A stretch of 64,000 nt of DNA. It comes from Eledone cirrhosa. Lineage: Eukaryota. Positions 5,813 through 60,299 of the stretch are shown piece by piece. Each line of letters opens with the position of its first letter. The first letter of the stretch is position 1. The notes beneath the pieces are model-generated. The model was not told the DNA's origin, searched no databases, and saw only the letters and a program-made list of their open reading frames with translations. The stretch lies in assembly GCA_964016885.1 (NCBI GenBank), contig CAXHJY010001240.1, positions 1-64,000 on the forward strand. Reading direction: 5' to 3'. A program made the translations under genes and the position numbers.

Positions 5813-7509
5813 TTTATGCCCGTGGTCACAATCTAAGACAAGATGAATTGCAGTACCATGTGTTGCTGATATGTATTTGTATAAATAAGTGTTTCAAATA
5901 TAGGCATAAGGCAGGTCAACAATTTCAGTGGAGAGGGAAATTGATTAAATCAGCCCCAGTACATTACTGGTGCTTTATTTTATTGATCCTAGAAGGATGA
6001 AAGGCAAAGTTGACAGGATTGAACTCGGTATCTAAAGCGTCAGAAAAATATTGCTACGCATTTGTGTGTATCTATGTATGGGTGTCTGTGCGCACGACTG
6101 AATTTAAACTTATTTATAGCATGGAGTACTTTTCACTTATTTGTTATCACTAGCACACATGCACATAATTATGCATATATAATTTGTATGTATATATGTG
6201 TGTACACACACACACACACTCATCATCATCACCATTTAACGTACATTTTTCCACGCTGGCATAGTTAAGACTTTAATATAAGCAATAGTGGAAAAGGAGT
6301 GTACTTAAAATATGCTATGGAGTTTATTTGTTCCCTTTCTGGAACAAAAGCTCAGTAAACCACTTAAATGTGAGAACTGAATGAAGCCTATCCTCCAGCA
6401 AGTGAATATATTTGGTATGAATTTGACATTGCTGGTGGCCAAGCTAGCTCATCTTTCAACTTTGAAGTGTTTTTATTTCTGTTCATATTTTCACTGCAAC
6501 AGTGATATCATCATCATCATCATCATCATCAACATCATCATCATCACTATCAGCAATAGTAGCACCATCATCACCACTACTACATTCTAGATCTTCTCAG
6601 TCTTACCTTGTGAATGAAGTGGATGGTAATAAATAGTGGACTAACGAAATATTCAATTTGAGCATAGTTATGTTTTCAATATAATAATAATGAAAATTAT
6701 TGTGTACAGTGCTCAGGTGCACTACAACTCATCAAAGGTGCATGTATAGTACATAGAATAAAGTACAAATGTCAGGAAAGTGAACAGTGTGTGAGTCATG
6801 ATATACACAGATACATACATGCGTATAAAGCAAAGATTTTACAGAGTCATGGGATCGAATTTAAAATACCTCGGCATTTGTTCAAGTTCACTACGCTCTG
6901 AATTTAAATCCCACCAAGGTCAACTTTATCTTTCATCTTTTCAAAGTCGATAGATATAGAGTCAGTGTAGTATTAGGGTTGATTCTTTCTCCTTCTTTGA
7001 AAGAAATTGGCTGTATTCTGCCTGGAGAAGGATGGGCTCCACCAGGTGTAAAATGCCCAAGACACCATGCATCAGGACATCTCCCTTACGATTCCATCAG
7101 ATGTTAAGGCTGCTTTACCTTACCTATATTTTCAATATAGCATTTTTAGAAGAAAATATGTTCCACATATGTAGAAATATCTCAACACACATACCATCAC
7201 CACCATTATTTTCGTATGCCCACTTTCTATGCTGGCTTGAGTTGAATAGGTCATCATGATCTGAATAAGTTCTTATTCAGTGTTACTGCCCTCCTAGATG
7301 TGTTAGAGACCATATCTCACTTGCACATTCCACTTTTGACATGGTTCCTACGACTAGACACATTTTCCAACGTAAACTACTTTATAAAGTAACGTACCTG
7401 GTGCATTTAACTGTGGCACCAGCACTGGAGAGGTTGTCATTGGTAGGATTAAAGCATCCTCGCAATGCTACACCAGTCTTTGCAAGCAGAGAAAAGACAT
7501 AATATGATG

Positions 7510-32336: not shown

Positions 32337-34044
32337 TTAATACAGAATATATCCAAAGAAGAAAAAATATATACAAAGTGACAAAAAATTACCCTTGTTA
32401 TTGAGAGCTAGTTTTACTATTATCTTGACTGTTTAATGTTTATTTTCCATCCTTGCATGAGTTAGACGGGTTGTTTCATGCTGAAGCCAGACTGGTCACA
32501 CGACCACTTGGTTTGGTTTCTATGACTGGATGCTTTTCTATTTTACAGCATGTACTAGGAGCCTAGTTTCTACAGTTGGAGGCGCTTCTTAACACCAATC
32601 CCTTTACAGTGTGCACCAGAAGCATTTTATTGTGAATCTGGCACTACCGCCATACAAGATAGACTGGCTGCTTTTCGACGTGGCACCAGTACTACCACCT
32701 TACAGGGTAGATTAGGTGTGTTAGTTTGTTAAACTAATTTTGTAACATTCAAAGAAACAACTAAATTTGATGTTTGTAACAGTAGAAGATCATATAAAGA
32801 CAAAATTGTTTAAATTATATATCTTTTATCATCCCTACACAGCTGGTGAATTGACAGAGTTATTAGAATGTAGGACAAAATGTCTTGTGATGTTTGCTTT
32901 GGCTCCCTACTCTCTAAATTCAAATCCTGTTGAGATCAACTTTACCTTTCATCCTTTTGGATAAGATAAAATATCAGTCCAGTGGTGGAATTGTTAAAAT
33001 AGCAGACAAGATATCTTGTGGTATTTGTTTAGGTTCTTTGCATTCTGAGTTCAAATCTCACTAAAATCTACTTGTATGATAGACTTAATTATTCACCCAG
33101 TTTAACATTAGCACCTGGCCCTTCAGTTTCTTTAACTGAGTACACTCTGTGGCAAGCATTCAAACCAGGTCTCCAATTTGAGGATGCCTTCCTCCCTCCC
33201 ACTATCCCAGAAGCCATAAAAAGGGTCATAGACTCTACTCTTCTCTCTTTGACTAAACAGTAGAAAAAAATTCTTAAATAAAAGAAGATTATTCATACCA
33301 CAAAACAGGGATAATTGATGTTAAATCATATATGATGATTAGAATATTCATACGTGAAATTCTATGTATTAAATTAATGGATTAAATTTAATCAATTATT
33401 GATCTCAATACTATGGGTGTGTGGTTCGAATGCCTCAGGAAAGAATTGCTGGACAGATTTTACAGGCAAAACCGACAGGAGACTCAGGGGTAACCCTGAG
33501 CAAGATGGTTGGATAACATCCATGAGCTTGGCTGGTCACACTTAGGGATCCAGCCAAATCAGTTGGAGATGGTTGCTTCTGACGGGACTGGCTGGAAGGA
33601 GTGTTTGAGGACTCTGCGCCCAGGACCCTCTCAGGAATAAGTGGGCGAAAAAGAAGAGAAGATTAAATTTAATACTTAGCAGATATTACAATTTTATTTT
33701 GAGTATAGGCAACCTTTTTCTAGTTGCAAGACTTATGAAATATTGCTCCTCATAAATCAGGTTGTATCACAAAAATAATTGTTACTATTATAGGCACAGG
33801 CCAGCTATTTTGGGGGAGGGGAAAGTCAATTAAATCGACCCCAGTGCATTACTGGTGCTTTATTTTATCGACCCCGTAAGGATGAAAGGCAAAGCTAACC
33901 TCGGTGGGATTTTAACTCAGAACGTAAAGGGCTAAAAATGATTTAAACAACATCATATGTAGTGCAGAGTATACTTTATATTACACAGCTGATAGCTTCA
34001 TGAATCATCTAGCTTCACCAAATCTTGATAGGGAGAAGAAGAGA

Positions 34045-34105
<61 letters not shown>

Positions 34106-34167
34106 TCCAGTACATGATATATACAAATACGAATAAATAAAAGTATGTAAAATGAGTCAATATTTAC

Positions 34168-34350
34168 CTGAGGGCAGTCTTTGATATAATGTCCTTTTCT
34201 AAAACATAAATGACAAAGATAGTGACTTGGAGGACGTTTGGTTGTTTGTCTGTCAGCTATGCTCAATTCACTGAACTGCTTTCTTAATTCATGAACATTT
34301 TCAAATGATGTTGAAGTTATTGGTGTAAGAGAATTAGTTTGAAATGATGC
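34168..34350 (-). CDS. ZCCHC24: ZCCHC24 exon (CCHC knuckle)
   Basis: ASFQ...QFSELSIADRQTTKRPPSHYLCHLCFRKGHYIKDCPQ; 183 nt, phase 0/0, CAG|GTAAAT donor. Confidence 0.95.
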
Positions 34351-34854
34351 CTGATGAAATAAAAATAAAGAGTTAGCAGAAACTTAAATATTAAGATAAA
34401 CAGAAAAACAAAACTCTTTTCTGTTATAAATAAACATTAGATTTTGTGATATTTCATTATAATTAGTGTTGGTGCCACATTAACACTTTAGCATTTATAT
34501 TACTCTATATATACTATTGTATTTTTGTAGTAAAGGCTTCATCTTACATAAGTATTTCACATAATATTGAATCTATGAGATTTTGGTGTTATTTATTTTG
34601 AGAACAATACCTTAACATCAGTATAAGCGACCAGTTACAGCTGGTTTGAACAGAGAGAATTTGGCCGGATACAGCCGGTTTAAATGGTAAACTGTTAAAA
34701 TTCATCCAGTACATCATTGAACTGACAACATAAGGTTGAAAGGACACAAGAACCTCTCTAGTGCTGGTATCACAATGCACCCTGTACTCTTTATAGAGTG
34801 GTTGGTGGGAAAACGGACACCAAGCCATTGAATTTATGCCAAAAATAGAATGTA

Positions 34855-37367: not shown

Positions 37368-37965
37368 AAATGTAATCTGAGTTTTTCGAATATTAATAAT
37401 TGTTTCTACTTTTTGGCACAAGGCCAGCAATTACCCAGTGTATTACTGGTACTTTATTTTATCAACCCCGTAAGGATGAAAGGCAAAGTTAACCTCGGCG
37501 GGATTTGAACTCAGAATGGAAAGGGCCGCAACTCTGCGTCAAAGCATGGCGTCCGACCCTCTACCGATACGGCCAACCCACCGTTCGAATATTAATAATA
37601 ATATTCGATTCGTTTGCAATTATACAAACAAGCCTCATTTTTAAAGCCATGTTAATAGAATGAGCCCCCCATTCTTGCTCTTGTGTTGGCATGGCTTTAA
37701 AAATGAGGCTTGTTTGCATAATTACAAACGAATTGAATATTATTATTACGGTGGATTGGCAGTATCGGTAGAGGGTCGGACGCCATGCTTTCCAGCATAG
37801 TTACGTCCCTTTACGATCTGAGTTCAAATCCCGCCGAGGTTGATTTTGCCTTTCATCCTTACGGGGGTCGATAAAATAAAGTACCAGTAATGCACTGGGT
37901 AATTGCTGGCCTTGTGCCTAAAGTAGAAACAATTATTAATATTCGAAAAACTCAGATTGCATTTA
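37368..37965. repeat. Fold-back (long inverted repeat) element with a SINE inserted in each arm
   Basis: Outer arms AAATGTAATCTGAGTTTTTCGAATATTAATAAT and its reverse complement. Inner arms at about 37600-37655 and 37685-37745. Confidence 0.8.
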
Positions 37966-38026: not shown

Positions 38027-39487
38027 ATATTGTTATATTTGGGGAGGGTCATATTTGCGTAATATTGCCAGAATTAATAACAGAACACACTCACTGTTTG
38101 GTTGGTTTTCGCTTCTCGCTGTCTTTTATATATATATATCTGCGATCTAACTTACTCGGTCCTCAATGTTGCCATTGACTGACCGGCGGTCAAAAATAAT
38201 ACAGATACAATATAGACACAAACACATATATATAGTTTACATAATTTACATAAATCTTTCGTTGCACATCTGCAACATCGTCAGTGGTGTTATATTCATT
38301 GTTCCTCCTGTTGTGTTGTATGTCTACGCCATTTTTTTTTGTTCAGTCTGTCTATATATTTATTTATTTATTTGCTTGTTTGTTTATCTTATTTTATTTT
38401 GTCTTCTTTGCGCATGCGTTTGCGTGTGTGTATAGTGTTATGTGTGATGTGTGACTAGTGTGTATAGTGTTGTGTCTGCTGGGTGACTAGTGTGTGTTTA
38501 TGTGCTTGTGTATGTATTTATTTATCTTATTTTATTTAATTTTATTTACTTATTTATACTTCTCTTAGGTCAGTGTTGTTTGTTTGGGTGTTGTTGTTGT
38601 TCCACTCATTCTTTCTGTTTAGCTTTGGTCTTCTAATTTCTATTTCACTGGCCTCTCTGATTTGCCTATCTGCTGGGTCATTCCTATGTTTAGATATTAT
38701 TCTAATTTCTATGTTGTCTATGTTACCGTCATGTTGTTGTCTAGCGTGTTCGTATAGTACATGTTCGTATAGAACATGCTAGACAACAACATGACGGTAA
38801 CATCGACAACATAGAAATTAGAATAATATCTAAACATAGGAATGACCCAGCAGATAGGCAAATCAGAGAGGCCAGTGAAATAGAAATTAGAAGACCAAAG
38901 CTAAACAGAAAGAATGAGTGGAACAACAACAACACCCAAAGAAACAACACTGACCTAAGAGAAGTATAAATAAGTAAATAAAATTAAATAAAATAAGATA
39001 AATAAATACATACACAAGCACATAAACACACACTAGTCACCCAGCAGACACAACACTATCCACACTAGTCACACATCACACATAACACTATACACACACG
39101 CAAACGCATGCGCAAAGAAGACAAAATAAAATAAGATAAACAAACAAGCAAATAAATAAATAAATATATAGACAGACTGAACAAAAAAAATGGCGTAGAC
39201 ATACAACACAACAGGAGGAACAATGAATATAACACCACTGACGATGTTGCAGATGTGCAACGAAAGATTTATGTAAATTATGTAAACTATATATATGTGT
39301 TTGTGTCTATATTGTATCTGTATTATTTTTGACCGCCGGTCAGTCAATGGCAACATTGAGGACCGAGTAAGTTAGATCGCAGATATATATATATAAAAGA
39401 CAGCGAGAAGCGAAAACCAACCAAACAGTGAGTGTGTTCTGTTATTAATTCTGGCAATATTACGCAAATATGACCCTCCCCAAATAT

Positions 39488-39495
<8 letters not shown>
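38027..39495. mobile_element. Near-perfect ~725-bp-arm palindrome made of two 3' ends of a Penelope-like element
   Basis: Arms 38027-38751 and 38772-39495 with a 20-bp spacer. The right arm (+) translates EHARQQHDGNIDNIEIRIISKHRNDPADRQIREASEIEIRRPKLNRKNEW, resembling the C-terminal half of a PLE GIY-YIG domain. It ends in (TA)n. Confidence 0.8.
39238..39265 (+). ncRNA. Hammerhead-like core (incomplete), mirrored at 38257-38284 on minus
   Basis: CTGACGA-T-GTTGCA-GATG-TGCAAC-GAAA. Stem II is good, but I could not assign a convincing stem I or stem III. Confidence 0.45.
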
Positions 39496-40270: not shown

Positions 40271-40711
40271 TACATAGTAAAACCTACTACAGCCAGTAGG
40301 CATCTCTAACAAAATACCCCCTCCCCCCCCCCCCGTCCCACCACCCCCACCCCATCCACACCACCCCGTTCTATGTAAAGTTATGTTGGTGCCACACCAT
40401 CCAGGCCGAAACAAATGAGATCGTGTAGGTCTCACAACAAAAAAACACACAGTCCACGCTGTAATGTGGCCGTGTAGGCAACACGGTAAAAACATCCCAG
40501 ACCCACACTGTAAATGTGGTTGGTGTTAGGAAGGGCATCCAACTGTAGAAAACCTGCCAGACAGTCCTATGCGAGCAAGACAATCACTCTTGCCTCAAGT
40601 GGGACTACCCCCGTCCAAACCCATGCAAGCGTGGAACACGGACGTTAAACGTTGATGATGATGATGATGATGATGATATAGAAGTGGTTACACAACAGTT
40701 AGTTCACCATA

Positions 40712-40751
40712 CCAAGAACAATTGTTTCACCTTCGCGGATCTTCAGCTCGG
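40712..40751 (-). ncRNA. Minimal type I hammerhead ribozyme, inverted copy
   Basis: Minus strand CCGAG-CTGAAGA-TCCGCGAAGGT-GAAA-CAATTG-TT-CTTGG. The first pair of stem II is mismatched. Confidence 0.65.
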
Positions 40752-41389
40752 GATGTGTATGGTTATAGGAACTGGAAGGGCAACCGTACGAACACGCAGA
40801 AACTCAATCACTTCACACAGGCAATACTAGACTGCGTGCGGGAGGTGTACATTATTCTATGTACTATACATGCACCTTTGATGAGTTGTAGTGCACCTGA
40901 GCACTGTACACAATAATTTCATTATTATTTTTTTTTTTTATAACTGCGAAAGTCCGGAAAGTTTTTAGGTTGAAAATAAAATTTAAAAAAATTTAAAATA
41001 AAATTACAAAGAATCAGTCCGGGATTTCCCCTTGCGTATGGCCATACGCAAGGGGAAATCCGACGTGTGGCTTATGTATCGACGAACGAATAACTATCCT
41101 AAAGAGATTACGCAATAGTGATTGCCTAAACACGAGAAGTGAATTTTTCACACGTTGTCCACACGTCACCAAACATCTATTGCATAACTACAAGGCTCCG
41201 GACTGATTCTTTGTAATTTTATTTTTTATTTTTTTAAATTTTATTTTCAACCTAAAACTTTCCGGACTTTCGCAGTTATTTCCCTTACACCTCCCGCACG
41301 CAGTCTAGTATTGCCTGTGTGAAGTGACCGAGTTTCTGCGCATGCGCGTTCGTACGGTTGTCCTTCCTGTTCCTATAACCATACACATC

Positions 41390-41429
41390 CCGAGCTGAAG
41401 AGCCACGAAGGTGAAACAATTGTTCTCGG
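41390..41429 (+). ncRNA. Minimal type I hammerhead ribozyme (Penelope-associated type)
   Basis: CCGAG-CTGAAGA-GCC(ACGAA)GGT-GAAA-CAATTG-TT-CTCGG: stem I CCGAG/CTCGG, intact core boxes, palindromic stem III ACAATTGT, GUU cleavage triplet. Confidence 0.8.
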
Positions 41430-41523
41430 TATGATGAACTAACTGTTGTGTAACCACTTCTATCTAACTCGTCCCTTGGACTGAGTGCTCTACCACTACG
41501 GATATTACCTCCCAGTGTTCCAC

Positions 41524-41579
<56 letters not shown>

Positions 41580-41584
<5 letters not shown>

Positions 41585-41695
41585 AACGAGTAGGACCCCG
41601 ACGGCTGAGCTCAAGCCGTTTCGACGGCTAATTTAGTCCAGAATTAGCCGTCGAAACGGCTTGAGCTCAGCCGTCGGGGTCCTACTCGTTCCTAT
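41580..41695. repeat. Perfect 54-bp-arm palindrome built from the 3' half of a hammerhead
   Basis: Arms 41580-41633 and 41642-41695, loop TAGTCCAG. Each strand reads hairpin-GAAA-CGGCT(TGAGCTC)AGCCG-TC-GGGGTCC, with no CTGANGA box. Confidence 0.85.
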
Positions 41696-41771
41696 TACCC
41701 ACTCTACTACCCTAAGTATTGAGTACTTTGGTGCGTTATGGTCCATCTGGTTCCTTACCACATTTCCTTCG

Positions 41772-41866
<95 letters not shown>

Positions 41867-42533
41867 ATCATCGCCATTTTTATCACTGCTGGTATGGGTT
41901 TGAATGCAATCTTCCTGATTGCATGTTATGTTTGTCATGTTCCCCAATATTTTTCTCCTGTTTGTTTGTGTGTTGTCCCATTTTCTACTTGTTTCATTAC
42001 ATCTGATTAATCTCATAATCCAATGAAAAGCATTAAGCTTTCAATTCTCGAACTTTTAGTTTACTATTTCTCTCTCCTCTCATCAACATCATTGTCAATT
42101 AACATGTTTTCTCTGCTAACAAGGGTTTGCTTGGTTGTCACAGACCAAGTCCATATTTAATCTGAGCTACTAATCTTGCAAATAGGTTGGAGGCTCACTT
42201 CTGACTTTTTGTGTAGCAGGTTTTATAAGGCTTGTTGCCCTTCCTATCTATCATCAACATATCATCAACATCATCATTTCTTGCCAGGCTTCCATGCTGG
42301 CATGAGCTGGGCAGGATGGAGAATCTTGTCTTGCTTGTAGGTTCCATTTTTGCCATGGTTTCTATGGCTAGATACTCTTCCTAACACCAACCACTTGACA
42401 GAGTGTACTAGGTACTTTTATTGTGATGCCAGTATTACCATTTACAGAGTGATCTGGGGGCATTTTATTTTTGCACCAGCGTTACCACTTTATAAAGTGG
42501 ACTGGGTGCACTTTACCATGGCACATTTAAGAG

Positions 42534-43868: not shown

Positions 43869-46800
43869 TCAAGTGTCTTTTGTGGTTATGCAAACGGAAA
43901 AGGAAGGGAAAGGCAAGGACTCTCGTGTTGCAGAAGAATGGGGAGGGTGGTGGGCTCTGGGCCTAGGGCACGGTGGTATTGGGGCTGCACCCCATGGACA
44001 AGACCTCAAAAGAATTTCCCATGGACAATGGCCAACGACACCAGCTGCAACAGTCACCCTACTTCGCGGGGCTCCTTCCTCAGATGGGTCGATCTTGTGG
44101 AGGAGCTCGGCAGTACAGGGTCCAAGTATGCCTGGGGTATCAACGGTGACCAGTGCGAAGAGGAAGCAGCTGGACAATCCCCAGTATTTGTTTATCTTTC
44201 TTTCCTTTGCATTGCGGGCCACAGTACTGGGGATTGTGCCTGAAGCGACTAAGTTGGGGGCGGAGAACGTGTCACAATACGTGGTGTCCCAGATGAGGGA
44301 TCTATCTCCTTTGGTAATTCCATTGGGGCACTTGCCATCTCCACAGTCAAGGCCTGCTGGCTTCAATTGTGATGGGAAGTCAGCTGCATCCAGACTCCTT
44401 TTCAATATGTTGTTGAGAGCGGCATGTCGGGGTAACTGGCCTGTGCTCTGGCAGCAAGAGAGTGAGTGTAGGCCGAACTTGTCAACGACCACCCTGCAAC
44501 GGCATTTATGTGGCTCACACACGCAGAGGCCAAGGTGTTGGACCACTCTGATGTGAGTGCACTCATCACCAAGAAGGGTACCGGTTGATGAAGAGGGCAG
44601 CGAATTGAGCCACGCACCACTGATTGGCTGTGAAGCGGAGCGGAGTCAAACGAGGCAGTGTTGGTTCAAGCGAGACTAGATCTGCCTGAAAGAAGACCTG
44701 CATATGATGACACCCTAGTTACGTTGGACATTTGTATAAAGAGGGAGAGAGGCCTTCGCCTGTCCAGTTGACCAGAACCTGTTCGAGCTCTGGGGCCATG
44801 GTAATTTTGGCCATCTTGCTGAGAACCTCGCTGATGAGGGTGCGACTGGAGGAGATTGGGGAAGGGTAGACCGGTAGAGCCAGATCCAAAGCTGATCGGA
44901 GGCCGGGGCCACCGAACCCCGCTGGGAACTTCACTTGTTGCCAGGTGCCGCTGTCAAAACTGACATTGCAGATGAATTCTGCACAGCGTCAGATGGTGGC
45001 GTCGAGTTCACCGGGAAGATCTGCGTGGGAATGACAAGGTGCACAGAAGGTGATAGCGTGAATAGAAATTTGGGGAGGGCGAAGCAGTTCCCCAAGAGGA
45101 ATCGCCCCGGGTGAGTGCAAATGAGATGCAACCTCTCTGCCATTCGGGACAAATTTGCATGCTTGGTCTCCAGGCATTCTCTGATGGCTTTTGAGAGGAT
45201 TGGAGAGCCGAGAATGCCTGCAGTGTCTTTGGGTGTTAGCCAAGCCCCAGACGGGACGGGATGGATGCTGAGTATGGCGTTATCGAATTCGGCCTCTCCG
45301 TAGCTAACGTTTCTCACTTCAGACTTAGATGAGCTGATCTCAGGTCTGAGGAGCTTTAGAGCTGGGATGATTTGCTGAAGGTCCTCAACTACTGTCTCAG
45401 CCAAGCCACCCAGGGTCGCGTCGTCCAGGTACCAAACGTTAAGGGGCAACCGAACTGAGCAGGCAACGTCGCCGACTGCCAATGCAAAGAGGAGCGGGCC
45501 GAGTATGTCTCCTTGCTGGACACCCGTGGCGGTAGTAATCCTATTGTCAGCGGCCTTGAGTGAACTGGGTCTTCCGTACGAGAGGTGAACGAGAGGGTAA
45601 ATGGAAGGGGCTCGTCTGAGACACGCCTCTAAGACGAGATCCCGCCTAACGCTGCTGAGGGCTTTTGTCATGTCCAGCTTCACAAGGAGGTGGGGTGACT
45701 TTCAAGCTATCTTGGCTGCAAGTCGTCGGAAGATGTTGCCCACCGCGATGGGGCAAGCGTCTCCATCATTCTTCCTCAGGGTGGTTAGACAGGCTGAAAA
45801 GAAAATATCGCGGGCATGGCTGGGCAAGTTGGCGCGGGGGAGACAGTTGGTGAGGGCTGTTAGCAACTGGAGCAATCGGGAACCTTCTTCTACAGCGTGA
45901 GACGAGATGATGTTTCTGTGGTGACCGGGACGCAAGTCGTCCACTCCGTCACTGCTGCTACCTTGGAAAGATCTAAGGGCAGCTACTACGTCCTCACTAG
46001 ACGCAGCAGGAAAAAGATTGCTGACCGAAGCTGGAATGTCCCTGGCGTCAGCTGGGGGGTCCGGATGTTTATGGCGAAGTGCTGATAAGACATAAGAGGC
46101 CAGCACACTTACCGCCGTCGAAACGTCGCCCTCAATTAGTTTGAGGTTGACTCGGTCCCGGAAACGTTTTATGCTGTCGGAAGTGGATTGCGGGCGTTGT
46201 GTTGGCTCTGGTGGGCAGCACGAGAGGGCCGAGAGACTCACAGATGAAGGATCGCAGAATGAGATGATATTGCTCTTGAGCCTCGAAGTCAGGATTCCTT
46301 ACCAACGCGATCCCGAGTACGAGGGTCGAAAAACTGAATAATCTGGTCCGATTTTGCGGGTCGCCCGAGTCAAGTGCTCGGTCGATTGAAGTCGTTAGCG
46401 CTTCGGCCACGGGAGTGCGAGCAGCTCTGGGGATCCTGGTGATGACTCTCTGTGACTGCCTGAGGTGGGAGATCACCACCAGAGCCTCATCCAAGTCCGG
46501 CAGGTTCGGGTCCCCGATGTGCCGGGCGTCCGTGACTACCTGTGGTGTCGAGACGGATAGGCATGACGGGTAGTGCCCCCGATACAAGGATTCCGAGAGG
46601 TGAAAGAAGCTGCTACAGTTAGAACAGTTCCTTCCTTTCTTGTGCCTGTTGCGCATGGTGCACAAGTGGCACTGATCGACCTCTCGTGGGGTGGAAGGTT
46701 GAGGAGAGGCGGGCATTTAATTGAGGAGTGTTGGAAATAGAGGCGGAACATTGAAAATGGCGAGAGTGTGGGTTGGTAGGAGTGAAGGAGAAGTAGAAGG

Positions 46801-46899
46801 GGGTGATGTGGGGTGAATGGGATGATTGGTGTGTGGAGGGATAGAGGGGAGAAGAATGGATGGAATGTGTGTAGATAAGGCATGCTCATTTGGTAGCAA
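43869..46899 (-). mobile_element. Degraded near-full-length CRE-type (RLE) non-LTR retrotransposon
   Basis: N-terminal Cys/His finger (CHLC...CSNC..FFHL); RT motifs PIAVGNIFRRL, GVQQGDILGPLLFAL and WYLDD; zinc knuckle C.C...D..GLH...C plus RHAALN; RLE-like IWDTTYCDT...KERKINKY. The reading frame is broken by several frameshifts. Confidence 0.88.
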
Positions 46900-47679
46900 A
46901 GTGAGAGTAAAAAACGTTACAATCCCCTATCTAGAAAACGTTTAAGACATTTGTATCACTCTGAAGTGAATGTTTCTTTAACTTCTCAACAACGATACTT
47001 CCAGTTTTGAAATAACATTAGTTTATTTACTTCAATATTTTCAAAGTGACAGTAAATTAACGCTACAATCCACTCCCAAAATAACGTTTAAGACATTTGT
47101 ATCACTTTGAAGTAAATGTTTACATGTAAGGCATAACCTATTAAGCCTATTAAGTTGCGTTAACGTGTTTGGATTTGGGAAATCTAACAGATTAGGGGTG
47201 TAATTCGCCTTCTTTAATCATATGTCCGAGGAAATATATTTTACATTGAGAAAACTTACACTTATCTAAATTCAACTTGATTCTAAGTTTGTAGATCACG
47301 TCGGGGTCACCACTTTAGGCGGGGTGGTCAGACATCCCGTCTAATTGGATATGGTATACTGGCACATAGTCAAACAAGGAAGAAGGAACATACCTCAATT
47401 TTATGTTATAGAAACATTTTTTAATAGGAGCAATTACAGAATATATTCAAATACATTAGTGCTCCTAGGTTGGGATATATTTTAGTCGTCATATAAAACC
47501 GCATGGTGTGATATCGTCTTTTGGATCACTGCGTGAGAAAACACGTCTATCGACTCCGTGTTATCATCATCCAAGAGCTATTGTTTCAGCTACTGACGTC
47601 AGAACTAAGGGCAGTTAATCGACTGCCTTCACAGTCGACGCTAGATGGCGTGATCTTCTACAAGTTCTGTCTTGAGTCA

Positions 47680-52432: not shown

Positions 52433-53069
52433 TTTTCCAAAGCTAACAGCTGTAACAGTGAGAGAGCAGCATAGGAAAGGTCTATAAATGAGAGGAAAAG
52501 GAGGAGAAGACAAGGAAAAATACTAGACAAACGAAGAAAGGGGAGAAGGGGAGAGGGTGTATCTTAAAATATAAAAGCACAATATTGTTAAAATCAAAGT
52601 ATCAGTTGACGTTTATCCACATTGCATTAGCTTATATATAGTCGGGTTACATCAGTCTTAGAAAGTTAAGCAAAGTTAGGTGATACTAAGTACAATACAC
52701 GCATTTTACCACGAAGAGACACATAGCTATTTGATGTTATCAAAGTGAGGTGATACTAATAAGCACAATAACACACTGAGTTCTAATGATCCTAGCCTTC
52801 CGTCTACAATGATATTTTAAATGACGTAAGCTTCGGCATTGATTTAGATCTTCACGTAACATTCACTAATTTTTCATTTAATCCCCATTTTAGCTTTCAA
52901 AAAGATGTCAAAGAGAAAAATGTTCTTACTGTTCACAAGTTTTTCAGACAATGCCAACAAGGCAAGAAAGGAGGGAGAACCTGGAGAGGAGAGAGCAGAG
53001 GAAATAGAACCAAATAAAAGATCATATTTTAGTGATGATCTTCCAAAAGCTAATTCAAACCAAGAACAG

Positions 53070-56000
53070 TGCAGCAAAGGTACAGGTAGCCAGAACAAGG
53101 GCACTAGAGCCACCTACAGCAAAGGTACAGGTAGTCAGAACAAGGGCACTAGAGCCACCTACAGCAAAGGTACAGGTAGCCAGAACAAGGGCACTAGAGC
53201 CACCTACAGCAAAGGTACAGGTAGCCAGAACAAGGCCACTAGAGCCACCTACAGCAAAGGTACAGGTAGTCAGAACAAGGGCACTAGAGCCACCTACAGC
53301 AAAGGTACAGGTAGTCAGAACAAGGGCACTAGAGCCACCTACAGCAAAGGTACAGGTAGTCAGAACAAGGGCACTAGAGCCACCTACAGCAAAGGTATAG
53401 GTAGTCAGAACAAGGGCACTAGAGCCACCTACAGCAAAGGTACAGGTAGCCAGAACAAGGCCACTAGAGCCACCTACAGCAAAGGTACAGGTAGTCAGAA
53501 CAAGGGCACTAGAGCCACCTACAGCAAAGGTACAGGTAGTCAGAACAAGGGCACTAGAGCCACCTACAGCAAAGGTACAGGTAGCCAGAACAAGGGCACT
53601 AGAGCCACCTACAGCAAAGGTACAGGTAGCCAGAACAAGGGCACTAGAGCCACCTACAGCAAAGGTACAGGTAGCCAGAACAAGGGCACTAGAGCCACCT
53701 ACAGCAAAGGTACAGGTAGCCAGAACAAGGGCACTAGAGCCACCTACAGCAAAGGTACAGGTAGCCAGAACAAGGGCACTAGAGCCACCTACAGCAAAGG
53801 TACAGGTAGCCAGAACAAGGGCACTAGAGCTACCTACAGCAAAGGTACAGGTAGCCAGAACAAGGGCACTAGAGCCACCTACAGCAAAGGTACAGGTAGC
53901 CAGAACAAGGGCACTAGAGCCACCTACAGCAAAGGTACAGGTAGCCAGAACAAGGGCACTAGAGCCACCTACAGCAAAGGTACAGGTAGCCAGAACAAGG
54001 GCACTAGAGCCACCTACAGCAAAGGTACAGGTAGCCAGAACAAGGGCACTAGAGCCACCTACAGCAAAGGTACAGGTAGTCAGAACAAGGGCACTAGAGC
54101 CACCTACAGCAAAGGTACAGGTAGTCAGAACAAGGGCACTAGAGCCACCTACAGCAAAGGTACAGGTAGCCAGAACAAGGGCACTAGAGCCACCTACAGC
54201 AAAGGTACAGGTAGCCAGAACAAGGGCACTAGAGCCACCTACAGCAAAGGTACAGGTAGCCAGAACAAGGGCACTAGAGCCACCTACAGCAAAGGTACAG
54301 GTAGTCAGAACAAGGGCACTAGAGCCACCTACAGCAAAGGTACAGGTAGTCAGAACAAGGGCACTAGAGCCACCTACAGCAAAGGTACAGGTAGCCAGAA
54401 CAAGGGCACTAGAGCCACCTACAGCAAAGGTACAGGTAGCCAGAACAAGGGCACTAGAGCCACCTGCAGCAAAGGTACAGGTAGTCAGAACAAGGGCACT
54501 AGAGCCACCTACAGCAAAGGTACAGGTAGCCAGAACAAGGGCACTAGAGCCACCTACAGCAAAGGTATAGGTAGTCAGAACAAGGGCACTAGAGCCACCT
54601 ACAGCAAAGGTACAGGTAGCCAGAACAAGGGCACTAGAGCCACCTACAGCAAAGGTACAGGTAGTCAGAACAAGGGCACTAGAGCCACCTACAGCAAAGG
54701 TACAGGTAGCCAGAACAAGGGCACTAGAGCCACCTACAGCAAAGGTACAGGTAGTCAGAACAAGGGCACTAGAGCCACCTACAGCAAAGGTACAGGTAGC
54801 CAGAACAAGGGCACTAGAGCCACCTACAGCAAAGGTACAGGTAGTCAGAACAAGGGCACTAGAGCCACCTACAGCAAAGGTACAGGTAGTCAGAACAAGG
54901 GCACTAGAGCCACCTACAGCAAAGGTACAGGTAGCCAGAACAAGGGCACTAGAGCCACCTACAGCAAAGGTACAGGTAGCCAGAACAAGGGCACTAGAGC
55001 CACCTACAGCAAAGGTATAGGTAGTCAGAACAAGGGCACTAGAGCCACCTACAGCAAAGGTACAGGTAGTCAGAACAAGGGCACTAGAGCCACCTACAGC
55101 AAAGGTACAGGTAGTCAGAACAAGGGCACTAGAGCCACCTACAGCAAAGGTACAGGTAGCCAGAACAAGGGCACTAGAGCCACCTACAGCAAAGGTACAG
55201 GTAGCCAGAACAAGGGCACTAGAGCCACCTGCAGCAAAGGTACAGGTAGTCAGAACAAGGGCACTAGAGCCACCTACAGCAAAGGTACAGGTAGCCAGAA
55301 CAAGGGCACTAGAGCCACCTACAGCAAAGGTATAGGTAGTCAGAACAAGGGCACTAGAGCCACCTACAGCAAAGGTACAGGTAGCCAGAACAAGGGCACT
55401 AGAGCCACCTACAGCAAAGGTACAGGTAGTCAGAACAAGGGCACTAGAGCCACCTACAGCAAAGGTACAGGTAGCCAGAACAAGGGCACTAGAGCCACCT
55501 ACAGCAAAGGTACAGGTAGTCAGAACAAGGGCACTAGAGCCACCTACAGCAAAGGTACAGGTAGCCAGAACAAGGGCACTAGAGCCACCTACAGCAAAGG
55601 TACAGGTAGTCAGAACAAGGGCACTAGAGCCACCTACAGCAAAGGTACAGGTAGTCAGAACAAGGGCACTAGAGCCACCTACAGCAAAGGTACAGGTAGC
55701 CAGAACAAGGGCACTAGAGCCACCTACAGCAAAGGTACAGGTAGCCAGAACAAGGGCACTAGAGCCACCTACAGCAAAGGTATAGGTAGTCAGAACAAGG
55801 GCACTAGAGCCACCTACAGCAAAGGTACAGGTAGTCAGAACAAGGGCACTAGAGCCACCTACAGCAAAGGTATAGGTAGTCAGAACAAGGGCACTAGAGC
55901 CACCTGCAGCAAAGGTACAGGTAGCCAGAACAAGGGCACTAGAGCCACCTGCAGCAAAGGTACAGGTAGCCAGAACAAGGGCACTAGAGCCACCTGCAGC

Positions 56001-56678
56001 AAAGGTACAGGTAGCCAGAACAAGGGCACTAGAGCCACCTACAGCAAAGGTACAGGTAGCCAGAACAAGGGCACTAGAGCCACCTGCAGCAAAGGTACAG
56101 GTAGCCAGAACAAGGGCACTAGATCCACCTACAGCAAAGGTACAGGTAGCCAGAACAAGGGCACTAGAGCCACCTACAGCAAAGGTACAGGTAGCCAGAA
56201 CAAGGGCACTAGAGCCACCTACAGCAAAGGTACAGGTAGCCAGAACAAGGGCACTAGAGCCACCTACAGCAAAGGTACAGGTAGTCAGAACAAGGGCACT
56301 AGAGCCACCTACAGCAAAGGTATAGGTAGTCAGAACAAGGGCACTAGAGCCACCTACAGCAAAGGCAAGTACAGGTAGCCAGAACAAGGGCACTAGAGCC
56401 ACCTACAGCAAAGGTACAGGTAGTCAGAACAAGGGCACTAGAGCCACCTACAGCAAAGGTACAGGTAGTCAGAACAAGGGCACTAGAGCCACCTACAGCA
56501 AAGGTATAGGTAGTCAGAACAAGGGCACTAGAGCCACCTACAGCAAAGGTACAGGTAGTCAGAACAAGGGCACTAGAGCCACCTACAGCAAAGGTATAGG
56601 TAGTCAGAACAAGGGCACTAGAGCCACCTACAGCAAAGGCAAGTACAGGTAGCCAGAACAAGGGCACCAATGCCACCT
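53070..56678. repeat. 45-bp minisatellite, about 80 highly homogeneous copies
   Basis: Unit ACAGCAAAGGTACAGGTAGCCAGAACAAGGGCACTAGAGCCACCT with a few recurrent substitutions and two 4-bp insertions (about 56366 and 56640). Confidence 0.98.
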
Positions 56679-57967
56679 GATTATTGAATGCACCATGTCA
56701 CATAGAGGTGTAATGGAAGCTCTTGATAAGACCTTACAGGGCATAAGAGGCAACAATGCATCTATGGGAGGAGTTACATTAGTTTTATCAGGAGACTTCA
56801 GCCAGACATTACCAATCATTCCGAGAGGCACAAGATCTGATGAAATAAAAGCATTCATTAAGTCTTCGTGGTTATGGAATAAAGTACAGAATGTTCACCT
56901 TCAATACTAACATGCAAGCTTTATTACATGGAGACCAATGTGCAGAACACTTTTCAACCCGACTCCTTCAATTAAGAAATGGGACAGTTCCAACTGATGG
57001 GAATGGTTATATCAACTTGGCTCATATTGCTACCATGTTGAATTCGTCAGCTGAATTGAAGAACAGGGTATTTCCAGGCTTAAATAATCATTATAATTGA
57101 CACAAATGGTTGTGTAAAAGGGCAATTTTTGTTAGAAAAAACATGAGACAGTAACAAAGATTAACCATGAGCTAATGAATAAGATTCCAACAGTAATTAA
57201 GGAGTACAAATCAGTTGATTCAGTCCTTGATGAAAATCAAGCTGTCCACTACTCAACAGAGTTCCTTAATTCTCTTAAGCCACCTGCAACTCCTCCACAT
57301 AAACCTTTTCTGAAGGTAGGAGTCCCAATAATGCTTCTAAGAAATTCAGATCCTCCTAAATTATGCAATGGGACAAAGTTGATCGTGAAGACATTATCAC
57401 CTAAAGTGATTGAAGCTACCATCATTACTAGGTGTGTCTCTAGTGAAGATGTTTTCAATACAAGAATTCCAATCAAACCAACAGACATATCATTTGAGTT
57501 CAAACGAACACAATTCCCAGTGTGACTTTGCTTCTCAATGTCTATCAAAAAAGCTGAAGGTCAGACATTGAAATCTATTGGCTTGCACTTAAGTTTTTTT
57601 TTCGTAGTCAACTTGCTTTTCTCGTAGTCAACTTTACGTTGGTTGCTCCAGAGTGGGTAGTTTACAAAACTTATTAACCTATACTCCAAACCAGAAAACA
57701 AAAAATGTTGTTTACCCAGAAGCTCTTACATAATTTCCTTCAACATATGGGACATAATTTATATCCCCTCGTAAAAATAATAAATTTTGTATTTTCATTT
57801 TTTAAATTATTTCTTGTATTATGAATCATAATTGATTTCATCATGTACCTCAATTGAAGAATAAATGTAATTTAGAATAACAAATTTCTATACAACATAT
57901 TTGGCTTTCTTCTTCTAATATATCAGGAACACTTTAATTCCCAGGCAACACCGGGTGCTTCTGCTAG
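56668..57967 (+). mobile_element. Helitron 3' part: frameshifted PIF1-like helicase plus canonical 3' terminus
   Basis: QCHLII-ECTMSH...EALDKTLQ...GGVTLVLSGDFSQTLPII, LKVGVPIMLLRN.DPPKLCNGT, FKRTQFPV, QLYVGCSRV, NVVYPEALT-stop. 3' hairpin CCCAGGCAACACCGGG then CTAG|T at 57964-57968. Confidence 0.93.
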
Positions 57968-59208
57968 TATATAATAATTTCCTGCGATTAATAAATAACT
58001 AAACATCTTTGCCGCATAGCAGCATTGTGGAAATATCCAATGAAAGTCGTATGGTATTACAATATTTTGTGTGGGTGAGTTTGGACTGTGTAGTGGAAAA
58101 TACAGGATTAGTAATATTTTTGGTGCGATTACAGCCAGACATGTCCAAAACTAGCTTCGTCAGTTTACCAAACAGGGCGCACAACAGGGAGAGGGTGTCG
58201 CATCTGCTTAAGAGCACGTATAACAGTTTCCGTTTCTTTACTGTACACTCAGGATATGGCGAGCTTACTGTGTATACAATATTACGTTTACTGGCTTGTT
58301 TAAAACGATAAGGTAGATTTAAACGGATATATCACTGCTTATATCGGACAAATCGAGCAACCATGTCTGACTTATTGACTCGCCTGGCCGTAATATTCAT
58401 TCGGATGACAGAGAAATCAACAACAAATTGCTTACATCTTTAACCTTTTTTTTATAGTAAACTGCCTGAAACCGCCCCTGGCTCTATGATACTAAACTAT
58501 ATATTTCAAAGAGTTTTTATGTTTTTAAAAAAACCTCTCCAATTTCTAGGTTATTTTCAAAATAAAATATGGTAATGGAAGGCTTAACTTATGATATTAA
58601 CAGATACAAGGTATAGTATAGGCTAACAGCATCATGGAATATTCTCGATTCAACATGTGCAACTTACGATTACAACATTTTTACTGTTTGTTTGTTTGGA
58701 ATTTCATAGCATTCCAGTTTTAAGCATAGCTTTTACTAGCTTTAACATGTTTTCTATCTATCTTTTACTAGCTTTAACATGTTTTCTATCTCTCTTCTCT
58801 ACACTGTGTCGAAAAATGCTTTATAAGCATTTTTCAACCGAGTGATGACAAATGCTACATAAGCATTTGTCACTAGTGTAGTAACTGGTCGGAGGTATAT
58901 TTCAACTGTTAATGCCCTTCTATTTTTGGTTTTCCCTACGTCCTTGGTTGTGGGTTTTATCAGCTTACAAACTACAAACGAAGGCGCGTAGCTGAGTGGT
59001 TAGAGAATTGGATTTGCAATCGTGATGTTGTAAGTTCGATTTCCGGACTGGGCAATGCGTTATGTCCTTGAGCAAGACACTTTATTTTACGTTGCTCCTT
59101 CTACCTGGAGTTGCGACCGATAGATAGAATTAGCAATTGAAAAGACCAATGGAAACGATGTTTCCTCGGTCCGATTTGACGAAAGTCGATCGTCTGTCAA
59201 TATATATA

Positions 59209-59325
59209 TAGCCTACATAGAGTACTCCCCTTTCCTACCGAAACACTTACTATATATATATATATATATATAGTAAGTGTTTCGGTAGGAAAGGTAGAGG
59301 AAAGGGGAGTACTCTATGTAGGCTA
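59209..59325. repeat. Palindrome centred on (TA)n that mirrors the tail of the adjacent hammerhead element
   Basis: TAGCCTACATAGAGTACTCCCCTTTCCTACCGAAACACTTAC-(TA)n-reverse complement, with an 11-bp indel between arms. Confidence 0.9.
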
Positions 59326-59365
59326 CAGAGCTATTTAGTTATGTAATAAACAACATAAGACAATT

Positions 59366-59440
59366 ATTCCATTTACCAAAGGTTTCACGAAGACAGACGA
59401 TCTCTACACAGACGTCTGAAATCGCTCATCAGAATGAAAT
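59366..59440 (-). ncRNA. Type I hammerhead ribozyme with extended stem II, inside a 57-bp-arm inverted repeat (59336-59392 and 59453-59509)
   Basis: Minus strand ATTTCATT-CTGATGA-GCGA...TCGT-GAAA-CC(TTT)GG-TA-AATGGAAT: 8-bp stem I with one GU pair, canonical core, GUA triplet. Confidence 0.8.
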
Positions 59441-59503
59441 TTTATTTGAAGACTTCGTGAAACCTTTGGTAAATGGAATAATTGTCTTATGTTGTTTATT
59501 ACA

Positions 59504-59553
<50 letters not shown>

Positions 59554-60223
59554 TGAAGAATAACCTGGTCAACAGTACAAACAAGGAAATTTATTTACAG
59601 TTTAACAATTGTTTCCATGATAGAGTTGTCTAAAAATTGCTAAACACTGAAGATTACCTTTAACGATTTATTGTTATCCTATATATATATATATATGTAA
59701 AAGTTCTATTTAAATTGTTGGGATACAACAAGCAAATATTTTTATAACTGATATAAAGCACTCAACAAATATTTGGAGTAAAAATACGATATTAACAAAT
59801 GGAAACTATATTTATAAAACCATATTTATTTCATTATACATATTTCAAAATATTATCAAAATATTAACAAAATAGATATTCTATTTTGTTGATATTTTGG
59901 ATTAATATTTATGACTCTGGAAAAACAATCTGTTGAGTGCTTCCAATCTATTGTAAAACTCATTCTTTGATTTATTCATTGAACCTTGTTTAACTTTTAA
60001 ATATATATATATATATATATATATATACAAATATATTACACAGAGAGAAGTGTGTTACACAGTGAGATGTGTGTAAAGAATTATTACATGTGAGTTTAAC
60101 CGTTGATTCTGACTTAGTGTTCTTTCTATTTAATTGCCAACCTGTTGAAAAGGTCATAGGAGTGAAGAGTGCTCTATGTAAGTGCCAGAGCTAAATTTAA
60201 TGTATAATAAACAATACAATATA

Positions 60224-60299
60224 ATTACCTCATTACCAGAGGTTTCCCGAATAAGACGAATACGAAAAACGTCCCCATTCGTTCGTCGGATAAGGCAAT
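60224..60299 (-). ncRNA. Degenerate hammerhead related to 59366-59440
   Basis: ATTGCCTTAT-CCGACGA-ACGAAT...ATTCGG-GAAA-CC(TCT)GG-TA-ATGAGGTAAT. The core reads CCGA instead of CTGA; the downstream tail is homologous to 59300-59365. Confidence 0.55.

Follow-up and report, generated by a model that had tools for sequence, protein, structure and literature searches.

The palindrome at positions 41580–41695 of the 64,000-nt stretch of Eledone cirrhosa DNA analysed here (the window) is very probably a truncated head-to-head insertion of the type left by Penelope-like retroelements (PLEs), an assignment made by layout, with no PLE coding sequence tied to its family. That family is present in very high copy number, and its inversion joints are fitted better by two cDNAs begun at the element's two 3' ends, one of them stalling in helix II of a probable hammerhead, than by self-copying. 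For the palindrome itself, we see an even chance that it arose as a 5'-truncated head-to-head PLE insertion from two cDNAs that stalled in helix II and were then joined. Taken alone, the palindrome locus adds nothing new, being a known kind of structure. With the two fixed 3' ends and many independent junctions of the family, a simple count in one assembly could separate twin priming from self-priming, and the family could also show whether an RNA helix sets truncation points.

The two arms of the perfect inverted repeat, 41580–41633 (minus strand) and 41642–41695, are identical at 54/54 bp, which bears out the 54-bp-arm palindrome of an original prediction made from the letters alone. They are separated by an 8-nt spacer, TAGTCCAG (41634–41641). 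The fold of 41580–41695 has a stability of z = −24.4, with 0 of 200 shuffles equally stable. (TA)n target tracts, read directly from the sequence, border the unit on both sides, at 41527–41582 on the left, where the tract is common to the neighbouring unit, and at 41773–41828 on the right. The right arm extends 78 nt beyond the mirror, an extension that has no counterpart on the left. The spacer (plus strand), which is covered by family contigs and reads, belongs to the direct arm, a 5'-truncated pLTR end with its tail at 41634–41773 (plus strand) seen in X1 contigs and X21 reads. The tail, placed on one arm only by sequence and family depth, occupies 41696–41773 (plus strand) between the family's two 3' ends, the first of which is also the outer end of the inverted arm. 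About 100 X21 reads and three X1 contigs extend from the mirror arm through the spacer, which disfavours an assembly artefact; no single listed piece from X1, X4, X5 or X21 covers the whole locus. The window as a whole looks like animal DNA rich in repeats, among them (TA)n tracts and remains of retroelements, and blastn and nhmmer detected no second copy of the palindrome arm in the rest of the window. Two other classes of element were considered and rejected. A MITE or foldback DNA transposon, in which one terminal inverted repeat would form both ends of a fixed interior, is disfavoured by a right end lying 78 nt past the mirror, by a junction position that differs among copies and by the small number of reads entering the mirror arm. 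Non-LTR retrozymes are described as tandem arrays in which every unit has a full type I hammerhead (10.64898/2026.07.22.740005), whereas the locus is a single inverted unit with an incomplete motif.

The stretch 41604–41776 served as the reference for reads and contigs of four of 23 listed runs (X1, X4, X5 and X21) at 80% likeness, in place of the genome BLAST that the original prediction had asked for; X21 comprises raw RAD reads with the same organism label from another study, and X5 carries another organism label. Between 0.65 and 0.67 of the words of 40680–42300 recur in three runs of a single sample, from which the window may derive. Aligned on this reference were 22024 X1, 547 X4 and 43 X5 contigs and 24684 X21 reads, most of the family reads being 90–99% alike to the palindrome copy. 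The family has two 3' ends, at 41695 and at about 41773, and the palindrome arms end at one of them each. Family depth continues to 41776, yet many copies finish at 41695, and (TA)n follows this position in all four runs (3589 X21 reads and 106 X1, 9 X4 and 3 X5 contigs). In X4, coverage of the tail is ~2.5 times that of the hammerhead half of 41604–41776, and one X4 contig joins a 3' end via TATATAT to a copy starting at 41654.

Insertion units of endonuclease-positive (EN+) PLEs are described as a pLTR with an adjoining inverted, 5'-truncated copy and a tail on one end (PMC8557442; PMC3846280). Here, a head-to-head inverted 5'-truncated copy was found at the palindrome and 14 further inversion joints were found in the family, the family has a one-sided tail with two alternative 3' ends, and the microsatellite or AT-rich target is represented by (TA)n on both sides. 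As far as the units are set out in these sources, the likeness covers head-to-head arms, one-arm extension, microsatellite target, 5' truncation and junction palindrome. The palindrome unit differs from them in its tail of 78 nt (theirs measure 30–40 bp), in its size of <200 bp, in having no linked ORF and in a truncation that falls inside the hammerhead position. There is no ORF inside the unit, and GIY-YIG was absent among the 9 of 30 window ORFs scanned against Pfam.

Each arm carries what is probably the 3' half of a type I hammerhead (41652–41682, plus strand, in the direct arm): C-GAAA (41652–41656), a helix of 6 bp closed by a loop of 7 nt, GTC (ending at 41675) and GGGGTCC, the candidate 3' strand of helix I, with the predicted cut after 41675. 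The GAAA, helix III and NUH cut site of a type I hammerhead are thus present at 41653–41675. The original prediction had read GAAA, stem III, GUC and GGGGTCC on both strands and the CUGANGA half as missing, and both readings agree with what we find, no CTGANGA standing ahead of GAAA at the locus. The scan of the locus detected neither the CUGANGA box nor the 5' strand of helix I in the palindrome copy, and because the CUGANGA half is absent this copy, judged by its sequence, is not a ribozyme and is unable to self-cleave as it stands. Residues are numbered (C11.1, G10.1) as in general usage for hammerheads; of the G10.1–C11.1 pair expected to close helix II, the C at 41652 (C11.1) is present, and the natural 9-bp helix, seen by eye, stops two bases short of it. 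The loop of helix III holds the self-complementary GAGCTC. Helix III itself, at 5–6 bp with a loop of 7–9 nt, exceeds the 0–2 bp expected of metazoan PLE hammerheads, and most metazoan hammerheads have a helix III of 1–2 bp (PMC4209133). The distance from the cut site to the far end is 97–98 nt, against 102 and 101 nt in the two intact hammerheads of the window.

Scanning the window with a loose GAAA-helix-UH pattern returned 33 rows, and the strict form (C-GAAA-C, ≥5 Watson-Crick pairs, GUH) occurs there in these two arms only; the strict 5-bp form was also present in 12/100 approximate block shuffles of the window. Among 20000 dinucleotide shuffles of the 140-nt direct arm, the strict form arose in 0.015%, against 0.9% for the loosest sensible form, at stringency thresholds chosen after the sequence was seen. 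Rfam returned 97 matches in the window at E up to 5, none of them a hammerhead, a result that weighs little because it also missed both intact minimal motifs. Pattern scans of metagenome contigs and viral contigs gave 0 matches; 112 prokaryote matches to a 17-mer were dismissed as chance, the longest alignment being 29 nt. A further copy of the helix III 6-mer, at 41646, permits a competing hairpin. One 6-mer is found three times in alternating sense within 41646–41675 (at 41646, 41656 and 41669), and its middle strand may pair to the left, with a 4-nt loop over GAA, or to the right as helix III; a conformational switch in the family RNA is possible. The same three 6-mers could, alternatively, mimic GAAA and helix III by accident, as two competing hairpins in a PLE end or another small repeat without a ribozyme. 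The absence of CUGANGA from the listed loose ends of other copies (below), the lack of an Rfam hammerhead, the atypically long helix III and the frequency of the half-motif in the window (33 loose rows) and in its shuffles (12/100) would fit such an accident, which we nevertheless regard as very unlikely, given the right orientation and distance from the far end, the rarity in arm shuffles, the self-complementary loop and a natural stem-loop that, by eye, closes just before GAAA.

The natural sequence upstream of this half-motif differs from the form that the original prediction expected of intact copies, CCCC-CTGANGA-GACGGCTAATT. Depth shows no step at 41623 in X21, X4 or X5, and CTGANGA occurs in 0 of the 23 loose ends listed (430 more exist), each of 30 letters. 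X21 first-mate-plus depth is 4121 at 41646–51, 606 at 41628–33, 104.5 at 41622–27 and 97.8 at 41616–21, so that the fall sits at 41628–41646 and the profile is nearly flat across 41623 (104.5 vs 97.8); left of 41628, depth drops by 96% in X4 (911 to 38) and by 100% in X5 (110 to 0). It should be noted that the reference shares family sequence only from 41628, and stops farther upstream are invisible in these depths. Given the lack of a step at 41623 and of CTGANGA in the listed loose ends, the predicted 11-bp ‘stem II’ at the centre is mostly mirror sequence. Nor can the central hairpin alone be called stem II, since it is the inner 11 bp of the palindrome and any palindrome has one.

Some family copies align starting at 41628 or 41631, and the loose ends before these positions come from 30 and 42 X1 contigs, 6 X4 contigs and 1 X5 contig. 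By eye, the X1, X4 and X5 loose ends offer, ~20 nt upstream of 41628, a 9-bp partner for 41642–41650, and also pair imperfectly with 41632–41641 as an inner helix. It therefore seems that a stem-loop of ~55 nt, its apical loop near 41624–41631, naturally occupies the helix II position, and with so long a stem-loop the CUGANGA slot would fall outside the 30 letters given for each loose end. A second subfamily diverges at 41645 (1429 X21 reads, agreement 0.74) and has a shorter hairpin; the slot before 41645 resembles CTGANGA at 4/7 places, which was judged not significant. Two further signals were set aside. The pile-ups of X21 ends at 41630 and 41642 both begin with AATT and are probably restriction cuts, the RAD library having presumably been made with an AATT cutter, and A>T at 41631 does not count as covariation, as mirror-mapped records yield this change automatically.

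In the original prediction, helix II was GACGGCTAATT-loop-AATTAGCCGTC directly after CUGANGA, and the RT copied both of its strands, stalled and snapped back. The geometry of the locus permits this, and the X21 loose-end consensus before 41645 pairs with 41646–41652, with two G-U pairs and a short loop. We consider it highly improbable in view of the missing 41623 step in X21, X4 and X5, the 96% (X4) and 100% (X5) loss of depth left of 41628, an upstream sequence of another kind and a 7-nt slot agreeing with CTGANGA at 4/7 places only. Copies end in the 3' strand or the loop, before any 5' strand is copied, and not after stem II as had been proposed.

Inversion joints were taken from the best 15 of 27, listed by support, with 41709–41743 set aside as an internal deletion. 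Nine of the remaining 14 change strand, and five link the mirror arm to the right arm, becoming inversions once mirrored. In all 14, one arm begins at 41630–41648, 5–23 nt ahead of GAAA. The other arm begins at ten distinct places within 41665–41746, in 13/14 at 41689 or later; 41689 recurs among the joints and borders a common variant that breaks alignments. The 19-nt start zone is common to all ten partner positions. Two random points in the visible stretch would produce so early a start with a probability of 0.30 per joint, and nine independent events at 0.30 would give 2e-5, a rough figure, as the joints were picked by support and some are multi-copy. The multi-copy joints have a depth of 45–363, compared with about 10, and their junctions could therefore be inherited rather than repeated. 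Seven further joints, available from the table only, have an end at 41628–41654 in five cases and elsewhere in two. No letters are shared across the joint in 11 of the 14, and 2–3 are shared in three; letters between the sides are given for only three of the 14, and opposite-strand joints may have some that are unlisted. The shorter side finishes exactly at 41695 in two joints (41635+61 and 41641+55), which fits a cDNA primed at 41695 as that arm, and the evidence for a long arm ending at 41695 comes from these two. In two more the shorter side ends at 41683, which is uninformative, as a common variant breaks the alignment there.

Randomly distributed breakpoints, the outcome that the original prediction had named as adverse to itself, were thus not found among the 14 listed joints. 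Its idea that the ribozyme fold sets the inversion breakpoint holds insofar as the starts cluster at the helix II position, and it is likely that this fold halts copying. Its snap-back self-copying is not supported as a general route, considering that 13/14 listed joints pair the clustered start with an arm at 41689–41746 and 11/14 share no letters.

At the palindrome locus, self-copying has more in its favour. A cDNA from 41773 could have stopped near 41628, folded on a 6–7-bp hairpin around the spacer (41628–41647, plus strand; −2.7 kcal/mol as RNA) and been elongated, either by the RT of the element or through alternative end joining of the host, with the copy then cut or ended at 41695. 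A cDNA that stopped at 41628 is able to form the hairpin at its 3' end, and the arms are identical at 54/54 bp though most family reads are only 90–99% alike to this copy, so that hairpin and identical arms fit self-priming here equally well. About 100 X21 reads enter the mirror arm and 80/122 carry the mirrored letter at 41631, so that another variant may have this 8-nt geometry too. The neighbouring 40-mer (below) looks like a short snap-back, self-priming has been proposed for junction palindromes (PMC3846280), and snap-back synthesis is described in end joining (PMC5728401). Self-copying nonetheless requires a further, separate step that terminates the copy precisely at the other 3' end of the family, and it leaves unexplained both the joints in which the long arm apparently ends at 41695 and the short arm is tail only, and the 11/14 listed joints without shared letters. 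We consider it unlikely, though a serious competitor for this locus.

Under the preferred reading, a cDNA would be started at each of the element's two 3' ends, the primers belonging to opposite target strands, and the natural helix II, a longer stem-loop whose 3' strand and loop would cover 41628–41650, may stop the enzyme. At the palindrome, the cDNA from 41773 would have stopped near 41628–41634 and that from 41695 at 41642, and the two ends would have been joined head to head through about 6 nt of microhomology, for which the 6–7-bp hairpin at 41628–41647 is the probable natural source. In the usual case, the 41695-primed cDNA would stop in helix II and the 41773-primed one in or near the tail, which would explain why the arms barely overlap in most other listed junctions. 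The PLE protein is reported to nick and extend both target strands, with RT starting at two sites that bound the tail (PMC11167929). That both start sites fire on one RNA (twin priming) and that hammerhead helix II ends the internally primed cDNA is offered tentatively, as less likely than not. If this were true, the ribozyme fold would determine where the inversion falls and how large thousands of ribozyme-dead mini-insertions become, the PLE ribozyme would have a structural role, and the family would record the integration mechanism. In L1 twin priming, one primer comes from each target strand, and the 5' segment becomes inverted without overlap; unlike there, the internal priming site of this family is fixed (41695), and the arms may overlap, as they do at the palindrome.

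A descriptor search of the window detected two convincing intact type I hammerheads of other families, at 41395–41424 (plus strand) and 59432–59374 (minus strand), each within a head-to-head unit that pairs a short arm with a long one; the hits at 59859–59813 and 35554–35456 were judged chance. The first lies in the unit 40678–41526, which has a degenerate hammerhead copy in its inverted arm and in which both arms extend past a weak helix II (−1.1 kcal/mol). The second lies in a unit of a third family, 59273–59509 (minus strand), the 57-bp inverted arm of which (59453–59509) begins within a stable helix II (−15.5 kcal/mol), in its 3' strand. The junction at 59453 falls in stem II just as the original prediction had it, 6 nt before GAAA and inside the helix II domain of the hammerhead 59432–59374. 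The long arm retains the whole ribozyme, beginning 20 nt before CTGATGA, and at this junction no hairpin could have acted as primer. The short arm accordingly ends inside the stable helix II of the 59453 unit and continues through the weak one of the 40678 unit, in a comparison of three units in which both short arms measure 54–57 bp, as a length rule would also yield. The clustered starts could on such grounds be unrelated to the fold and reflect amplified truncated sources of the same element, or an internally primed cDNA of ~50–65 nt. Multi-copy joints (depth 45–363), the 54- and 57-bp short arms of two unrelated families and a reference homology that stops at 41628–41645 are all compatible with this; ten distinct partner positions (41665–41746) sharing one 19-nt zone, and arms of about 250–730 bp in the other head-to-head units of the window, make it quite improbable in our judgement.

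The 5' end of the direct arm of the 40678–41526 unit is a perfect 40-nt palindrome (41022–41061), in which the original prediction saw the same TTTC-hairpin-GAAA symmetry. The perfect palindrome is there, but not a hammerhead: the intact one is ~330 nt away, and no helix III follows the GAAA of the 40-mer. About 21% of random window 20-mers hold GAAA or TTTC, so the symmetry carries little weight, and we reject the 40-mer as helix II and regard it as a junction palindrome of the published kind (PMC3846280). An 84-bp insert in the inverted arm of the same unit (40846–40929) is 97.6% identical to 6683–6767. Alignment revealed no clear homology among the tails of the three units, and a shared GAG(T/C)(A/G)CT(C/T) tail motif was dropped on account of its 17 occurrences in the window. 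An extra tail copy of the 59273–59509 unit lies at 59207–59324, tail to tail across (TA)n and with an 11-nt indel, and a diverged relative of its family (~75%) at 60144–60290 (minus strand) has a hammerhead core in decay, with a helix II domain about as long.

Two more head-to-head units lie in (TA)n. The one at 38027–39495 has ~730-bp arms that are 97.5% identical and a ~40-nt extension on the left arm only, a PLE-type layout; the one at 37369–37963 is older (86% identity), with a one-sided extension, a 38-nt spacer and a dispersed-repeat copy within each arm. The descriptor detected no hammerhead in either, indicating that inversion can take place without one.

Inverted truncated copies, tails, microsatellite targets, junction palindromes, self-priming and opposite-strand hammerheads have all been published already. 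For Adineta vaga Penelope, 18–38-bp palindromes at the 5' ends of pLTRs were interpreted as self-priming (PMC3846280), and the 40-mer at 41022–41061 resembles these junction palindromes. The passages on this element do not tie breakpoints to a ribozyme helix (PMC3846280), and most of the family joints listed here differ in having barely overlapping arms. Type I hammerheads in PLE pLTRs are reported as opposite-strand motif pairs 100–700 bp apart (PMC4209133), which the 40678–41526 unit matches. The palindrome shares with them C11.1-GAAA, a self-complementary helix III region and GUH, and differs in the absent 5' half and in a helix III of 5–6 bp rather than 0–2 bp (PMC4209133). Anolis Poseidon shares the two 3' ends bounding a tail, and in vitro both target strands are nicked and extended; the pertinent parts of that work do not derive inverted arms from two starts and report no hammerhead stops (PMC11167929). 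A literature search, with most subscription papers outside its reach, found no link of PLE inversions to twin priming or to a helix II stop, and the formation of inverted structures in PLEs and the role of their hammerhead are stated as open questions in passages of PMC8557442 and PMC11167929.

The window holds several other features. A broken non-LTR retrotransposon at 43869–46916 (minus strand) gives an RVT_1 match (E 1.3e-6) just under the curated cut-off, and a remnant of a Pif1 helicase 2B domain lies at 57136–57525 (E 4.9e-14), which we take to be of the type found in Helitrons. A zinc-knuckle frame at 34015–34383 (minus strand; zf-CCHC_2, E 1.1e-9) is possibly an exon of a host gene. 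At 53027–56400, a tandem array of a 45-bp unit with ~98% identity maintains open frames of >1100 codons on both strands, and small inverted-repeat units with (TA)n between them form a tandem run with a period of ~105 bp at 391–771.
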